Origin: a virus
Lineage: Duplodnaviria; Heunggongvirae; Uroviricota; Caudoviricetes
Virus record (IMG/VR): IMGVR_UViG_2778261459_000006
Direction: 5' to 3' (one strand)
DNA: 10,942 nucleotides
This document shows positions 1-10,942 of the stretch, one piece after another (position 1 is the first letter of the stretch; every line of letters begins with the position of its first letter). The notes below the pieces were generated by a model. That model did no database searches. It saw only the letters and a list, made by a program, of their open reading frames with translations, and had not been told where the DNA came from. Position numbers and translations under genes: made by a program.

Positions 1-408
1 GAGATTGATATGTTGAAAAACCAGTTAAGCAACAAAATTGATATTGTAGACAAACCGGTTAATCAACAAATCGAGACCAATGGCGACGCTATTGTAGGAG
101 AACCAGTTATGAAGGACTTAAGCAACAAAAGCGATATTGTAGACAAACCAGTTAATCAACAAAAAGCGGGTGGCCGTCCGGCAAAATTCAAAGTAGAACA
201 GCTAGAGCAATGGCTTAAGGAGCAAGGCGGATATAAGGGAACTATCGACGATTTGGCGCTACATGCGTTCGGCAAGGTCGGCAAAGATGGCAAGCTGCAT
301 GGCGCACCAGGCCGCCACTGGATGTACAAGGCGTTAGCTGAACTGGAGAGCGAGGGGAAAATTGCCAAAGAGGCAGCGACAAGGAGCGGGATTAATATTG
401 TTGCTTAA
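1..408 (+). CDS. 3' part of a junction-spanning XRE-type HTH regulator; continues from 10518..10942, full protein about 251 aa if the molecule is circular
   Basis: Frame is open from nt 1 and in phase with the ORF beginning at 10518; stop TAA at 406-408. Contains a 93-nt (31-aa) tandem repeat, LSNK(I/S)DIVDKPVNQQ, starting at 25 and 118. Followed by an intrinsic terminator. Confidence 0.7.
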   Translation, partial: EIDMLKNQLSNKIDIVDKPVNQQIETNGDAIVGEPVMKDLSNKSDIVDKPVNQQKAGGRPAKFKVEQLEQWLKEQGGYKGTIDDLALHAFGKVGKDGKLHGAPGRHWMYKALAELESEGKIAKEAATRSGINIVA

Positions 409-452
409 CCCTTAAAGCCAACGATTAGCTACAAAACAAGCCATCAAGCGAA

Positions 453-3072: not shown

Positions 3073-3693
3073 ATGCGCATATCAAAGCAGCAACGCCAAA
3101 TCCTCGACTATCTGGCAGAAAACGAATCAATCACAGCACGCCAGGCGGCAGATCTCGTTTATGGCGGCAACGTTACCCGCGTACAGGTCGATGCAGCCCG
3201 CCGTTCACTGATGGCGCTGGTCAGCAATGGGCTAATCATGAAACAAGGCCGCGCTTTCGTAGCTGAAAGACATATCAATCACGCTTATAGCCAGGACGTT
3301 GAAGAGTTGCGCCGTCAGATCCTTTGGGTATTCAGCAAAGAGGGGCAGGACTATCTCATTTCTGAGCGTCCAAATTACGCCGCCAAAGAGTTAACAGTAA
3401 GCGGATTGTCGTGCGCACTGGATTATCTTGTCGGTGAAGGTTGCGTTACTTACAAGCAGCTATGGCACGCCCTGAACACGCTTGTAGAAGATGGTTTACT
3501 CATTGCCACGCGTGAGAATATCGAATACTGGATAATGCCGCGTTCAGGTCGCCGCAATCATGCGCGGTATATTTCAGGCAACAAATACAGAACGCCTGAC
3601 TTTAATCCGACACAGGAAGATCGGGACCGTGCCGAAATGATGTGCAGGGAACGGGAGAAAAGATTCATGGACAAGTTGTTTTCGATGCGGTGA
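3073..3693 (+). CDS. 206-aa protein with two tandem winged-helix-like domains; candidate DNA-binding regulator or Rep-like protein
   Basis: ATG at 3073, stop TGA at 3691-3693, then a terminator. Segments QRQILDYLAENESITARQAADLV...LVSNGLIMKQGR and LSCALDYLVGEGCVTYKQLWHALNTLVEDGLLIA each look like a winged helix. Confidence 0.7.
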   Translation: MRISKQQRQILDYLAENESITARQAADLVYGGNVTRVQVDAARRSLMALVSNGLIMKQGRAFVAERHINHAYSQDVEELRRQILWVFSKEGQDYLISERPNYAAKELTVSGLSCALDYLVGEGCVTYKQLWHALNTLVEDGLLIATRENIEYWIMPRSGRRNHARYISGNKYRTPDFNPTQEDRDRAEMMCREREKRFMDKLFSMR

Positions 3694-4425: not shown

Positions 4426-5001
4426 ATGAGAAATGAAATCAAATATCAACATATCAAGCGTCTGTGGTGTCTAAAAGATGGCGTTATTTTTACGAGATGG
4501 GGCAATAAGCCTGTTTCTTTCTCCTGTAAAGTAAACGGGCGCCGCTATACAACGATTAAAGTTAACGGAAAATGGCACGCAGTTCTTATTTATGAAGCTA
4601 TTTTTATGCTGTTCCATGACCGCCCAATCGCTGAAGGAAAAGAAATCCACCACAAGGACGGCGATCCAGAAAATAACGCAATTGACAATCTTGTCGAGCT
4701 AACCAGAACGCAGCACAAGAGGATTCATCAATATCAGTGCAACGACCCGCTGCGCGGTATTTGCCTGAATCAAGGCGCATGGGAATTTAAATGGTATGAC
4801 GATAACGGAATATGCCGCAGCCGACGTTTCCACAGTATTAACGAGGCAATAAACTTCCGTGCCGAAATAGAAAAACCTCGCAGAAGAGAATTACGATTGC
4901 TAGGCTTGAACTGTCGTAAAAAATATCGCGGAATTACCGCAAGCCAACTACGCAAAATAAGCCGGAAGCAAAATTCTCGCTTATGGCGCACACACATTTA
5001 A
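4426..5001 (+). CDS. HNH endonuclease with an AP2-like DNA-binding domain, 191 aa
   Basis: HNH signature IHHKDGDPENNAIDNLVELTRTQHKRIH, then an AP2-like segment RGICLNQGAWEFKWYDDNGICRSRRFHSINEAINFRAEI. AAGGGA RBS upstream. Confidence 0.85.
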   Translation: MRNEIKYQHIKRLWCLKDGVIFTRWGNKPVSFSCKVNGRRYTTIKVNGKWHAVLIYEAIFMLFHDRPIAEGKEIHHKDGDPENNAIDNLVELTRTQHKRIHQYQCNDPLRGICLNQGAWEFKWYDDNGICRSRRFHSINEAINFRAEIEKPRRRELRLLGLNCRKKYRGITASQLRKISRKQNSRLWRTHI

Positions 5002-6324: not shown

Positions 6325-6375
6325 GTTAGCGAGGTGTTAGCGAACGATAGCGGGTAGTTAGCGAACGATAACGGG
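6325..6375. repeat. Tandem direct repeats of GTTAGCGA; two extended 19-bp copies, GTTAGCGAACGATA(G/A)CGGG, at 21-bp period
   Basis: Copies at 6325-6332, 6336-6354 and 6357-6375, intergenic, immediately upstream of the tail module. Confidence 0.8.
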
Positions 6376-6722: not shown

Positions 6723-6743
6723 TTGTTAGACGAAGGGGGTTAC

Positions 6744-7184
6744 ATGCCGATGAGACACCAGGCTGTCATTGAGCAGATCAAGCGGCAGCTAAGGGAAGAA
6801 ATCAAAGAGATTAGCAAGGACGCGGCGACAGCCGCATATGAGATCGCTATCACTGCCGAAGGCTATGCGGTAGCAGATACACCGAGAGACACGGGCACAC
6901 TTATAAACGGCTATTACATCAATATTGACGAAAATCCTGATGGTGCGCACGCCACTTTAGGTAATACGGAACGCTATGCGTATTGGGTTCATGAAATGCC
7001 GGGGATACTGAAAGGTCAACCGCGCGAACATTTCGGGAAGACAAGGGAAGGCGTTGCCTTTGGTGGCGGTACTGAAAAGGGTTGCTATTGGGATCCTGAT
7101 GCAAGGCCCAAATTCCTTGAGCTTGCGCTCGATGAGCATTACGACGAGTTTATGGATATAGCACGCAAATATTTAAAGCGATGA
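6744..7184 (+). CDS. HK97 gp10-like protein (tail completion / head-tail joining family), about 146 aa
   Basis: Motifs PRDTGTL, YAYWVHE and ARPKFLELAL fit the HK97 gp10-like pattern as I recall it. The ORF-track start at 6723 is a TTG; the ATG at 6744 follows a GAAGGGGG RBS. Confidence 0.6.
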   Translation: MPMRHQAVIEQIKRQLREEIKEISKDAATAAYEIAITAEGYAVADTPRDTGTLINGYYINIDENPDGAHATLGNTERYAYWVHEMPGILKGQPREHFGKTREGVAFGGGTEKGCYWDPDARPKFLELALDEHYDEFMDIARKYLKR

Positions 7185-7193
7185 GGTGAGATC

Positions 7194-9374
7194 ATGGGTG
7201 AACAGGTCGGAAGCCTTCAGATAGATATTGACCTGAAGACAAAAAATTTATTGGTAAGCCAAAACCAGGCTGAAAACGCGCTTGATAATATTGGCAATAA
7301 AATCAGCGGTGTGGAACGCAAAACAAAGACCTTTAACACGCAGTTAACTAAAACATCTGCCGCAGTCAAAAGCAGCCTTTCCCCGGCAATTCGCAACGCA
7401 TCGTTTCAGATCGCGGATTTAGCTACCCAATTGCAGATGGGCGGTAATGCTCTGGCGGCATTTGCCGTTCAGGGCGCACAGTTATTAGCTGGCTTTGGCA
7501 CGATGGGCGCGGTAGCTGGCGCGGTGCTGGCTATAGCTGGCGCTATGGGTGGAAGCCTGGCACAAGGCGCTGATAGTGCAGCCGGATCGGTTGAGTACCT
7601 GGACAAGGCGATCACCAAACTGAACGAGGTCATAGCTGTAAATGAGCAGGGCGTGACGGTGATGACTGATAGTTACGCCAATCTTTCTAAGGTTAACGCT
7701 GAAGTAGCGAAACAGATGCGGAACATGGCTGAAATTCAGGCAATTGCAGCACTGCGTGACCTGAAAGAACAGGCAAGCCAGGCACAGGGGGAAATGTCAT
7801 CATTCTGGCGTAGCTTGCAGGGCGGTAAAGCTGACGCAGCAGCAGCAGCACAGGCACTTGATGACCTGGGAATCACGACCAACGACTATAAAGAAGCGAT
7901 CGCCACACTTAACGCCAATCAGCCGGATACACAGGCGCAGATGGCGACGCTGGCTAAATCCGTGATGTATGTTGGCGAAGAATACGATCTGACCAATCAG
8001 CAAGCCTACGAATTCATCCGGGCGCTGAATAAGGCCGCGACAACGAAAACACCGGAAGCAATGCAGGAGCTATCTGGCTTCATGCAGGTATTGCTACAGG
8101 ACACAGAAAACGGTAACGAGGCATTCAGGGAACTGGCTATCAAATTCGTTGATGCACAAACCAAAGGCGCAATGCTGGAAGACCAACTAAACCGACTGAA
8201 AGGCGCTATCAGTGACGCAGCCACAGAAGCCAGAAACGCCAATTTTACCACTATGCTCAACACCGTCGCCGCACGCCTGGCAGCCATTGAGCAAGGTTGG
8301 GAGGCAGGTGTCAGGATGCAGATGAAAGCCCAGGGCTACACTGAAGAGCAGATCGATGAATATGTGAACATGGAAACGGCGTACAGGGATGCAAAAGCCG
8401 CTTTGGACGAGAAGAACAAGGCCGACCGTGAAGCAATTGCGCTATCCAAACGCCAGGCCGCAGAAGCCGCCCGCAAGGCAAAACAGGAAGAAGCTGAAGC
8501 ACAACGCAAGGCCAAACAGTTAGCGGCGCAGAAAGAACAGGCCGGACGCTTTACGCAGCAGGTGATGACGGAATATCAAACGACCGTGGATCCGGCAACA
8601 GGCCAGGCGTTGAACCCTGCCGCACAAGTGGAAATGCAGGAGCAGCAGAAGAAAACGGCATTAGATAAATACAGGCAGTTGGGTGTTTTGGGTGAGCAGG
8701 AGTATCAGAACACGCTAACAGCCATCCAGAAAACTGCATCAATGCGCCGCCAGCAAATCATCAAAGACGAGGCTGACACGTTATTCAACAATCAGCAGCA
8801 GTTGATCGGCACATTTGGCGATTTCTTCGGTGAACTGTCTGGAGTCATAGCAGACGGCGCGGGTGAGCAAAATGCGGCATATCAAGCGCTATTTGCTGTG
8901 CAGAAGGGGTTTGTATTGGCGTCGGCAGCTTTAAGCCTTCAAAAAGCGCTGGCAGAGGCAAACGCCTTACCTTTCCCGGCTAACCTTCCGGCCTATGCGC
9001 AAGCGATGTCAGCAGGTACGCAGATCATTTCAGCTATTCGTGGAATAGCTTTCGGTGGCGGACGCTACAACGGCGGCGCGGTTGGTGCTGGCAACCTGTA
9101 CCGCGTGGGTGAACACGGTAAGCCTGAGATATTCAAGGCGAACAATGGCAGCCAGTACATGATCCCAGGTGATAACGGTCGCGTGATAAGTAATCGTGAC
9201 ATTGGCGGCGGTGGCGGCGTAACAATCAACAGCCCGATCACCATTAACACTACGAATGGCTTCAGTGATGAAGACTCAAGGCGTCTTGAGGAAGCGATGA
9301 AGCGCGTAGCTATGGGCGTTTGCAGGCAGGAGTCAACCAGACCGGGAGGAATGTTAGCCCCGCGCCGCCGTTAA
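7194..9374 (+). CDS. Phage tail tape measure protein, lambda gpH-like, 726 aa
   Basis: N-terminus MGEQVGSLQIDIDLK, then a Gly/Ala-rich hydrophobic segment (…AAFAVQGAQLLAGFGTMGAVAGAVLAIAGAMGG…), a K/A/E/Q-rich helical region and a glycine-rich C-terminus with GNLYRVGEHGKPEIF. This resembles lambda-H-family proteins by eye. Confidence 0.8.
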   Translation: MGEQVGSLQIDIDLKTKNLLVSQNQAENALDNIGNKISGVERKTKTFNTQLTKTSAAVKSSLSPAIRNASFQIADLATQLQMGGNALAAFAVQGAQLLAGFGTMGAVAGAVLAIAGAMGGSLAQGADSAAGSVEYLDKAITKLNEVIAVNEQGVTVMTDSYANLSKVNAEVAKQMRNMAEIQAIAALRDLKEQASQAQGEMSSFWRSLQGGKADAAAAAQALDDLGITTNDYKEAIATLNANQPDTQAQMATLAKSVMYVGEEYDLTNQQAYEFIRALNKAATTKTPEAMQELSGFMQVLLQDTENGNEAFRELAIKFVDAQTKGAMLEDQLNRLKGAISDAATEARNANFTTMLNTVAARLAAIEQGWEAGVRMQMKAQGYTEEQIDEYVNMETAYRDAKAALDEKNKADREAIALSKRQAAEAARKAKQEEAEAQRKAKQLAAQKEQAGRFTQQVMTEYQTTVDPATGQALNPAAQVEMQEQQKKTALDKYRQLGVLGEQEYQNTLTAIQKTASMRRQQIIKDEADTLFNNQQQLIGTFGDFFGELSGVIADGAGEQNAAYQALFAVQKGFVLASAALSLQKALAEANALPFPANLPAYAQAMSAGTQIISAIRGIAFGGGRYNGGAVGAGNLYRVGEHGKPEIFKANNGSQYMIPGDNGRVISNRDIGGGGGVTINSPITINTTNGFSDEDSRRLEEAMKRVAMGVCRQESTRPGGMLAPRRR

Positions 9375-10263: not shown

Positions 10264-10276
10264 CCCACCAAAACAA

Positions 10277-10313
10277 AGGGGACTCAGCAATATCACCGAG
10301 TCCCCTTTTTCTT
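10277..10313 (+). terminator. Rho-independent terminator after the recombinase gene
   Basis: Stem AGGGGACTC (10277-10285) / GAGTCCCCT (10298-10306), 12-nt loop, then TTTTT. Confidence 0.8.
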
Positions 10314-10365
10314 TCTCACAATCCCCGCTGACATTATAACCGCCATTCCCTGGTTTTATCATTTG

Positions 10366-10517
10366 TTGACCAGCCTGCTATTTGTAGACAAATCCAATCA
10401 CATCTAAATCATCAACCAATAAATTGACCTAAATCATTTTATCAGTCGCTTAACCAGGTGTATTTTGTAGTCAAACAAGGCTTGACAAGGTTTAGCGACA
10501 AATTAAAGGGGTGAACA
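10366..10517 (+). promoter_or_regulatory. Promoter/operator region of the HTH regulator gene
   Basis: TTGAC(C/A) occurs three times at exact 58-bp spacing (10366, 10424, 10482). The motif TTGTAGACAA (10382-10391) and its variant TTGTAGTCAA (10466-10475) also recur inside the downstream coding repeats. GGGG RBS 5-6 nt before ATG 10518. No convincing -10 element. Confidence 0.4.
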
Positions 10518-10942
10518 ATGTATCAGCCAATGACTTTACCGGATCTGCTATTTGCCGCCGCCGACCGCGCGGGCTATGTCAACAGTAGCGGCAAACTGAA
10601 ACGCAAGGGGTTAGCTGATGCTCTCGGTATCGGTGAGCAGGCGCTTAACAGCTACATGAAAGGTAGCCGGGATGTTAGCACAGAACAACTAAATAACATG
10701 CTGACATTGCTTGGCGTGTACGGCATCGCACCATTCAAGGGCAATCAATGGATGGCGCTGGACGTGGATTATAAAGCGCGTAGCGACGAGATTGTCAGTA
10801 ACAAGATGATTGCGCTGGAACGCGATAACCAGCAAAAGGCACAGCAGATCGCAGCACTGAAAGCTGAGATTGATATGTTGAAAAACCAGTTAAGCAACAA
10901 AATTGATATTGTAGACAAACCGGTTAATCAACAAATCGAGAC
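10518..10942 (+). CDS. 5' part of the junction-spanning XRE-type HTH regulator (continues at 1..408)
   Basis: ATG at 10518; the N-terminus has an HTH pattern (GLADALGIGEQALNSYMKGSRDVSTEQL) followed by a coiled-coil-like segment. The frame runs off the window end and is in phase with 1..408. Confidence 0.7.
   Translation, partial: MYQPMTLPDLLFAAADRAGYVNSSGKLKRKGLADALGIGEQALNSYMKGSRDVSTEQLNNMLTLLGVYGIAPFKGNQWMALDVDYKARSDEIVSNKMIALERDNQQKAQQIAALKAEIDMLKNQLSNKIDIVDKPVNQQIE
10866..10942. repeat. Terminal 77-nt exact duplicate of nt 1-77; circular-contig overlap
   Basis: Direct comparison shows 77 of 77 identical, ending exactly at the window edge. Confidence 0.85.

Follow-up and report, generated by a model that had tools for sequence, protein, structure and literature searches.

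A palindromic unit recurs in the promoter region, the linker-coding repeats, and the stop codon of a putative regulator gene on a circular relative of CPZ-55-like islands

Results

The regulator gene and the circular element

We analyzed a stretch of 10,942 nucleotides (nt) from the IMG/VR virus record IMGVR_UViG_2778261459_000006, which is referred to here as the window. Its two ends are identical (positions 1-77 and 10866-10942), so that it represents a complete circular element of 10,865 bp; if circularity is ignored, features near the window ends are counted double. The element is a mosaic relative of CPZ-55-like islands, which are integrated beside intZ/eutA or near ychJ/purU in E. coli chromosomes, and of 5-12 kb plasmid-like contigs. 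Our subject is a gene for a putative regulator of 251 amino acids (aa; 756 nt), which runs across the junction of the circle and contains a 93-nt (31-aa) tandem repeat in its coding sequence (CDS). The original prediction had noticed, from the letters of the sequence, that a 10-mer upstream of this gene recurs within its coding repeats, and had suggested that the regulator may bind sites in its own gene. Our comparison of related loci indicates that the same cis element is indeed present in the promoter region and in the coding repeat, but that the 10-mer is merely a half-site of it. The gene thus probably carries sites for its own product. It is composed of two parts in the coordinates of the window:

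10518..10942, plus strand: first part of the regulator CDS, with a weak XRE-type helix-turn-helix (HTH) at aa 26-67, a long helix at about aa 83-131, and the start of the repeat linker
78..408, plus strand: second part of the regulator CDS, with the rest of the linker, a C-terminal winged-helix-like domain (169-405, beginning with GGRPAKF), and the stop codon (406-408)

The 10-mer is one arm of a palindromic unit

The exact 10-mer TTGTAGACAA was confirmed at 44-53, 137-146, and 10382-10391. A further exact match at 10909-10918 is the copy at 44-53 seen a second time through the overlap of the circle and is not independent. The one-mismatch variant is also present, as TTGTAGTCAA, but at 10465-10474, one position away from where it had been placed (10466-10475). 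The string shared by upstream and coding DNA extends to 11 nt (TTGTAGACAAA), with flanks that lack similarity, and the two coding copies of the 10-mer represent a single event, a tandem duplication.

It had been argued that such a 10-mer is not expected even once by chance. This is correct for a motif named in advance, but some upstream 10-mer or 11-mer recurs in the gene with a probability of 0.29 or 0.08, respectively. From the 254-nt upstream region, 13 10-mers and three 11-mers recur elsewhere in the circle, compared to 6.0 and 1.55 expected. The 10-mer coincidence on its own is weak, and an explanation by chance or composition (AT-rich sequence, codons for Q, N, and K, and a tandem coding duplication) would be adequate for the bare 10-mer.

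A second of these upstream 10-mers, CTGCTATTTG (10375-10384), also recurs in the regulator gene (at about 10544-10553). It shows no conservation pattern and is an internal example of chance.

The recurrence goes far beyond chance when the motif is taken as half of a larger, palindromic element. In this element, two 12-nt arms (consensus TTGTWGNTWAAC) form an inverted pair with a spacer of 2 or 13 nt, resulting in units of 26 nt (12+2+12) and 37 nt (12+13+12); the 10-mer represents the left arm. The circle contains 14 occurrences of TTGTWGNNNAA, while 0.88 are expected. We then searched for full units, allowing at most one mismatch in the twelve outer positions, and found seven in the circle versus 0.21 expected. 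All of them are located between the promoter region and the stop codon of the regulator gene:

10382..10418, unstranded: U1, 37 nt, TTGTAGACAAAT-N13-AATCATCAACCA; the left arm is the upstream 10-mer, the right hexamer CAACCA has one mismatch
10465..10501, unstranded: U2/U3 hybrid, 37 nt, TTGTAGTCAAAC-N13-GTTTAGCGACAA; the left arm is the one-mismatch variant, the right arm and the leader derive from U3, the unit upstream of the regulator itself
10875..10900 (= 10-35), unstranded: S1, 26 nt, coding, ATGTTGAAAAAC-CA-GTTAAGCAACAA; one mismatch in the left hexamer
10909..10934 (= 44-69), unstranded: S2, 26 nt, coding, TTGTAGACAAAC-CG-GTTAATCAACAA; encodes IVDKPVNQQ and holds the first coding 10-mer
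92..128, unstranded: U4, 37 nt, coding, TTGTAGGAGAAC-N13-CTTAAGCAACAA
137..162, unstranded: S3, 26 nt, coding, TTGTAGACAAAC-CA-GTTAATCAACAA; holds the second coding 10-mer
398..434, unstranded: U5, 37 nt, across the stop codon, TTGTTGCTTAAC-N13-GATTAGCTACAA; the left arm overlaps the last codons

A deletion has brought the upstream units next to the regulator gene

For comparison, we used the loci of 24 relatives that belong to the same class as the window (class I; see below for the others), including 16 chromosomal loci. Two features of the window were defined in this way:

10311..10502, plus strand: P1 regulatory module, of which about 192 nt (query positions 48-239) can be aligned in all 16 chromosomal relatives
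10488..10502, plus strand: deletion join, the 15-nt sequence AGGTTTAGCGACAAA common to both leaders; query positions 225-239 match both places in the relatives

An alignment of 17 P1 sequences has a mean column identity of 86%, with both boxes lying in invariant blocks. In the relatives, P1 is followed by a variable cassette of one to three small cargo genes, a terminator, a second regulatory region (P2), and then the regulator gene. The region with the 10-mer had been taken for the regulator's own promoter region, and in the window it does adjoin the gene. But in all 24 class I relatives the P1 boxes are located ~630-1,700 nt upstream of the regulator ATG, and by this gene order P1 is the predicted promoter of the cargo cassette. 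P1 and P2 are paralogous: each contains ATTTTGT, followed after 19 nt by AGGTTTAGC. U3 of the relatives is found at -50/-53 from the regulator ATG. As read from these alignments, P1 is fused to the regulator gene in the window by a deletion at AGGTTTAGCGACAAA, with loss of the cargo genes, the terminator, and the left part of U3. The motif region therefore adjoins the gene because of a deletion between two units. We did not find a second U2xU3 junction in viral contigs, JGI metagenomes, or GTDB representatives, and none of 5,426 E. coli genomes gave a single-piece match to the junction.

The units were also recovered by a repeat search on a 4.9-kb relative, in which the 41-nt end of P1 was best matched in P2, in the coding repeat, and over the stop codon. 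In the loci L001 and L022, these matches reached 27-30 of 41 positions; the maximum in shuffled sequences never reached 27. U4 matches the P1 41-mer at 25 of 41 positions in the window and at 27-28 of 41 in L001/L022, and it is among the best matches of the element. Random maxima of at least 25/41 were obtained in 4.2% of the shuffles.

One additional feature was noted near P1. In relatives (L001 9251-9313), an open reading frame (ORF) of 20 codons (MKRWEVILLMVMMFVMCIEC) is located directly after U2 and before the cargo genes. It is absent from the window, and a comparable short hydrophobic ORF is found in a class III element. This ORF may encode a leader peptide.

The units are conserved and confined to the regulator region

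The class I relatives contain 172 units, of which 170 are located in the regulator region (48 kb) and the remaining two in the more distant P1 of L007. No units were found in the other 128 kb of the 24 class I loci, and none in the class II and III loci. Position 10 of the arm, which was not fixed by the search, is an A in all 66 distinct arms. For U1, U2, U3, and U5, the arms are 3-10 times less variable than spacers or flanks; the minor-allele fraction in U1 is 0.028 in the arms versus 0.120 in the spacer (18 distinct sequences), and the variability of U5 is 0.015 in the arms versus 0.109 in the flanks.

Inside the gene, synonymous variants are depleted at the units. This was seen for the hexamers (1/15 third positions inside versus 47/119 outside, p=0.011) as well as for the complete arms (5/31 third positions versus 43/103 outside, p=0.010). 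The amino-acid variability in the in-gene arms is not lower. Not all in-gene units are equally well preserved: S3 is exact only in the window and the plasmid-like clade, and it is degraded to TTGCAG in 7/16 chromosomal alleles. Homologs with synonymous codons that destroy the 10-mer had been named as evidence against a site. Such a change does exist (GAC>GAT in L006), but the core hexamer is kept, and the change is therefore not refuting the site.

Two further classes repeat the pattern with different motifs

Regulator genes with other linkers fall into two additional classes. Class II is represented by NZ_CP062859 (L025), an 8-kb E. coli plasmid that contains a 98%-identical resolvase, followed by a homologous regulator with five copies of DVTA in the linker and a C-terminal domain unrelated to that of class I. 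The class II motif GATGTAACGG occurs 11 times in L025 versus 0.35 expected, with all copies around the regulator gene: two upstream (each with an inverted partner), five in the DVTA codons (GAT GTA ACA GCC), one on the stop codon, and three after it at a period of 12 nt. The linker array, with the same 12-nt period, is nearly identical to the one just past the stop codon. In class III (L026, L028, L029), the linker repeats are of the DERV type (DKRV in L028). The motif of this class, CGATGAAAGG, was counted in L026 and L029, with 10 copies in each where 0.67-0.69 are expected. They are found on both strands of the P regions, beside the ribosome-binding site, within the codons of the linker, and past the stop codon. 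An element carries 7-8 sites in class I and 10-13 in classes II and III. A comparison of repeat copy number across relatives, as had been proposed earlier, revealed variation in every class (0-2 in class I, 2-5 DVT repeats in class II, 1-3 in class III). The original idea that the coding repeat arose from captured operator DNA fits classes II and III, where a 12-nt-period array is present in the linker codons and just after the stop; the direction of such a transfer could have been either way.

With these replicates of the pattern in hand, the explanation by chance and composition is ruled out for the units: the statistics of the unit (seven versus 0.21 expected; 172 versus none in 128 kb elsewhere) and the recurrence of the whole arrangement with other motifs in classes II and III leave it extremely improbable.

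We next asked which protein follows the motif. The C-terminal 80 aa of the regulators are 96% identical within class I and 44-48% identical between classes II and III, while those of class I are unrelated to the others. The N-terminal types A and B (31% identical) both occur with the class I motif, and type B is common to classes I and II. L029, with the class III motif, and L030/L031, with the class II motif in their P regions, have N-termini of type C that are 91% identical. In this set of loci, the P-region motif tracks the C-terminal 80 aa and not the N-terminal HTH, the resolvase, or Rep. Therefore, the link to the N-terminal HTH made in the original prediction has to be given up in favor of the C-terminal winged-helix-like domain. 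P2 adjoins the part of the gene that codes for the N-terminus, and simple linkage would predict the opposite association.

The same comparison bears on the possibility that the units are sites of another protein, that is, res/hix sites of a serine recombinase, iterons of Rep, or operators for the XRE HTH at the N-terminus. In their 12+2+12 layout and in the arm TTGTTGAAAAAC, the units are similar to hix sites; in the window a resolvase gene lies just upstream of P1, and the regulator starts with an HTH. But the resolvases are 97-99% identical across the window (class I), L025 (class II), and L028 (class III), with near-identical C-terminal HTH regions, and are combined with three different motifs. 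Furthermore, the resolvase gene is absent from all 16 chromosomal relatives, which keep the sites, as do the 4.9-kb plasmids without a resolvase. The Rep-like proteins of L022 (class I) and L026 (class III) share 98% identity, and the window's putative Rep is unrelated to them and has its own 22-nt iterons (1929-2083). Neither Rep nor the N-terminal type (A, B, or C) follows the motif. We rejected all three candidates and regard another protein as a very improbable owner of these sites.

A second explanation concerns the copies inside the gene. The promoter units could be bound by the regulator, and the in-gene copies could be tolerated by-products of a mobile array of sites, which are translated where they are in frame in a disordered linker but have no selected function; this corresponds to the captured operator DNA of the original prediction. 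Such arrays are proposed to expand, contract, and change position through slippage or unit-to-unit recombination. In line with this proposal are the variation in repeat number, the alleles without most or all in-gene units, and the near identity of the class II linker array to the array after the stop, and the window itself records a recombination between U2 and U3. However, the in-gene arms contain fewer synonymous variants than positions outside them (p about 0.01), three classes hold arrays at the same place, and the stop-codon unit is conserved. We therefore consider by-products an unlikely, though not a negligible, explanation.

Upstream of the units, P1 contains a block, CTCACAATCCCCGCTGACATTATA (10315-10338; ~4661-4686 in L025), which follows the resolvase terminator and is common to the window and the class II plasmid. 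Class III (L026 ~3567-3580) has just the first part of the block, CTCACAATCCCC, and the remainder of the P region differs from class to class. The block may mark a recombination joint or belong to a res site. It is overlapped by a promoter-like pair on the minus strand, ATGATA-18-TATAAT (10362 to 10333).

The regulator is predicted to be a modular protein

Profile searches gave weak matches in the N-terminal region of the regulator to the Pfam families HTH_3 (E 3.9e-4; 20.8 bits, below the cutoff of 23 bits) and HTH_31 (19.3 bits versus a cutoff of 27); no HTH was matched in the type B N-terminal region. For P0007, a homologue of 95% identity, AlphaFold2 predicted the HTH helices, a long helix (~aa 83-131), a disordered stretch that contains the repeats (132-180), and a small helical C-terminal domain. 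When modelled alone, the C-terminal domain of the window's protein had a predicted local distance difference test (pLDDT) score of 71.6 and the topology H-b-H-H-b-b. Its top matches in Foldseek had probabilities of 0.9-0.99 but E-values of at least 0.05; they were winged-helix DNA-binding domains, namely those of CodY, Fur/Zur, MarR, Z-alpha, and histone H1. In every class, a basic arm precedes this domain (GGRPAKF in class I, RRNPKP in classes II/III).

The class I C-terminal domain matches no Pfam family and has essentially no relatives outside this E. coli cluster. Only four matches were obtained among 1.84 billion representatives, which made a deeper alignment impossible. No relative of the regulator was found by a protein scan of genome contigs, and a sequence search of the PDB gave no match.

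Other features of the element

Two stem-loops were assigned in the vicinity of the regulator gene and P1:

453..476, plus strand: stem-loop with T-run, read as the terminator of the regulator gene, by eye from the sequence
10275..10308, plus strand: stem-loop with T-run at the end of the resolvase gene, directly upstream of P1; the T-run TTTTTCTTT is on the plus strand, while the tool called the minus strand

Downstream of the regulator terminator, and just 5' of an alpA-like gene (557-841), we noted an inverted repeat, TTTACAATAGATCCTGTAA (516-535), which may be an operator of another regulator.

A small serine recombinase of the resolvase family is encoded between a tape-measure-like gene and P1 (9637-10263; L025 3988-4614; L028 3144-3770). 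The window's copy is 97-99% identical to those of E. coli plasmids and plasmid-like contigs whose regulators are of class II or III. The element has the appearance of a CPZ-55-like island in a derived, plasmid-borne form. The 336-aa protein encoded at 831-1841 matches no family but is 42% identical to an HTH_36 Rep-like protein of L028. A 22-nt direct repeat, ACCATCAGTTTTGTACCCATAT, is present in five to six copies at 1929-2083, 90 nt 3' of this gene. Together, the two look like the Rep/iteron replicon of the element, unrelated to the Rep-like gene of its sister plasmids. Among the latter, L022 and L023 are circular contigs of ~4.9 kb (30-nt end overlap) with P1, one cargo gene, a class I regulator, a 196-aa Rep-like gene, a 102-aa gene, and a transposase-fragment ORF. 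They appear to be the minimal plasmid form of the module; L022 also contains inverted GGGTGGTAATTTTTACCAC repeats at 4501-4586.

Phage-type genes on the element encode an HNH endonuclease (4426-5001), an HK97 gp10-like neck/tail-completion protein (6723-7184), and a 726-aa tape-measure-like protein (7194-9374), but no capsid genes are present. Small-terminase-like genes also occur in the relatives. The presence of phage-type genes without a capsid suggests a phage-satellite lifestyle. We found no description of such a lifestyle for these elements in the literature searched, and searches on CPZ-55 together with satellites, and on comparable plasmids, yielded nothing relevant. Two further repeats were noted. 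A direct repeat of 106 nt (2526-2631 and 2836-2941; 78% identical) occupies a region in which no ORF is convincing, and 21 nt are repeated in tandem at 6327-6375 (2.3 copies). A search of the window against Rfam matched no family.

Discussion

A model for the function of the units

We observed sites that are confined to the regulator region, conserved, and co-varying with the C-terminal domain of the regulator. From this we infer, with a confidence slightly above even, that the C-terminal domain recognizes the arm units over the promoters, in the DNA coding for its own linker, and at the stop codon. The core of the original idea is supported by the three specificity classes, the natural domain swaps, the conserved arms, and the depleted synonymous variation.

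Binding, repression, and the role of the in-gene copies can be pictured as follows. The regulator would be a modular protein that starts with an XRE-type HTH, which can be exchanged, and continues with a coiled-coil helix, a disordered linker made up of the repeats, and, after a basic GGRP arm, the C-terminal winged helix. The C-terminal domain would bind the arms as a dimer, and the coiled coil and the flexible linker would permit the two spacings, which differ by about one helical turn. The protein would then occupy a cluster of sites on either side of its own gene and within it, consisting of the P1/P2 cores, the linker-coding DNA, and the stop codon. The promoters of cargo and regulator would be repressed by occlusion. 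The units in the gene and at the stop codon might serve as auxiliary operators, acting by cooperative binding, looping, or as a roadblock, and they might gate read-through into the downstream replication genes.

Several of our results weigh against this model. The synonymous-site test takes account neither of how the alleles are related nor of gene conversion that may have occurred between repeats. Moreover, the in-gene units are dispensable in some alleles: the short-repeat alleles L002, L004, and L007 retain S1 alone, the single-repeat allele L015 retains S1 and one degraded unit, and the 182-aa protein P0040 lacks any repeats; the repeat copy number ranges from 0 to 2. The linker and stop-codon sites adjoin the region coding for the C-terminal domain, so that their co-inheritance is expected anyway; the independent test consists of the P-region sites only and rests on a handful of recombination events. 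The promoters are only weak matches to the consensus, with hexamers that could not be assigned confidently. On the side of the protein, the full-length AlphaFold2 model is of low quality (pLDDT 50.6) and unsuitable for a fold search, and the Foldseek E-values for the isolated domain are 0.05 or higher and not significant.

The inverted repeats might instead act in RNA, as hairpins in the leader or the mRNA that control translation or stability. Units are indeed located beside ribosome-binding sites and within the transcript, and in L025 the sense strand carries every class II copy. But the class III sites in P1 are found on both strands, and L030/L031 contain class II copies on the minus strand. 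In addition, the arms are complementary at just 7-10 of 12-13 positions, transcription probably starts at or downstream of the left arms in U2 and U3, and no Rfam family was matched. An action in RNA is therefore hardly to be expected.

Alternatively, the cluster could be a maintenance locus, that is, a centromere-like site of a single-protein partition system, an array for handcuffing or copy control, or a second origin embedded in the gene. The number of sites per element and the direct arrays with a 12-nt period in classes II and III would suit such a function. The same is true for the position of the sites upstream of, inside, and downstream of the gene, beside the rep genes, and for the minimal 4.9-kb circular plasmids, which retain P1 and the regulator gene. 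There is also a precedent in ori-λ, which is located within gene O (PMC5043065, PMC4488673). However, we noticed no gene for a partition NTPase in these elements, and the regulator contains neither a Phage_rep_O nor a ParB domain. The gene lacks an AT-rich stretch for unwinding (the maximum AT content over 40 nt is 0.70 in the gene and 0.75 in P1), and separate Rep genes with iteron-like repeats of their own are present (831-1841 with 1929-2083; L022 4501-4586). We regard maintenance as quite unlikely to be the function of the cluster.

Building on recognition of the units by the C-terminal domain, the linker itself could be an evolving in-frame array of the protein's own sites. New C-terminal specificities would then rewrite the linker peptide (IVDKPVNQQ, DVTA, DERV), and the array in the gene would have a function, whether as an embedded origin, as a centromere, or as a feedback roadblock. 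We put this forward tentatively and consider it doubtful on balance.

Should the C-terminal domain bind the units, one stretch of DNA would serve as an array of cis sites and would at the same time encode the flexible linker of the very protein by which they are read. The variable repeat copy number would be explained, and the regulator would likely be the master regulator of the widespread, uncharacterized CPZ-55-like islands and of 5-12 kb E. coli plasmids. The three specificity classes with their natural domain swaps would provide a system for studying the co-evolution of specificity, operators, and a coding repeat. The case also illustrates that a marginal k-mer coincidence can mark a real element and that comparative data alone can tell.

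Comparison with known systems

Inverted-repeat iterons for the dimeric O protein are found inside gene O at ori-λ (PMC5043065, PMC4488673). The array described here is similar in that inverted repeats lie in a protein's own CDS, in a segment that codes for a linker modelled as disordered (10875-10934, 92-128, 137-162), with binding being predicted in our case. The ori region of λ gene O likewise encodes an interdomain linker, and lambdoid phages pair the O domain with iterons in a type-specific manner. Unlike O, however, the regulator shows no homology to Phage_rep_O (Pfam, PHROGs, NCBIfam), and its putative binding domain is C-terminal, while that of O is N-terminal. An adjacent AT-rich unwinding region and a helicase-loader partner, as at ori-λ, are missing here. 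Instead, there are separate Rep/iteron modules and extra units in the promoters and on the stop codon.

Operators within coding sequences are also known from lac O2 in lacZ and gal OI in galE, where they cooperate with promoter-proximal operators. Both represent operator-type sites in transcribed coding DNA, as proposed here, but they are single sites in regulated structural genes and not a translated repeat array in the regulator's own gene. Other genes contain or are flanked by sites of their own products: parS is located inside spo0J, the incC and incA arrays flank repA of phage P1, and single-protein partition systems include pSK1 Par and R388 StbA. Proteins of the ParB, RepA, and StbA type are autoregulated and build higher-order complexes on multiple repeated sites. 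The regulator gene resembles these systems in being flanked by and containing candidate sites for its product. It differs in its architecture of HTH, coiled coil, linker, and winged helix, and in that no such domain was detected; specifically, the regulator and the other proteins scanned contain no ParB-type domain.

In their layout (12+2+12 and 12+13+12), the units are reminiscent of hix/gix and res sites, which consist of inverted 12-nt arms around a 2-nt core or a longer spacer, T-rich on the outside with an A-tract on the inside; a basic GRP-type arm in front of the DNA-binding domain is a further similarity. This relationship failed our tests. The C-terminal domain is modelled as a winged helix and not as the three-helix HTH_7 of Hin, the regulator has no catalytic domain, no match to HTH_7 was obtained even at E up to 10, and a BLASTP comparison with Hin gave E=0.12. 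As the motif also does not go with the resolvase, we rejected a Hin-like domain acting on hix sites.

The regulator belongs to none of the families compared, and ori-λ is the nearest known design. If the linker is indeed an evolving array of functional sites, it would be a second, independent, and evolutionarily dynamic case of the ori-λ-in-O design and would point to a general route from arrays of cis elements to protein linkers. What is new here is a two-domain regulator whose coding linker repeat spells its own putative site, in three co-varying specificity classes.

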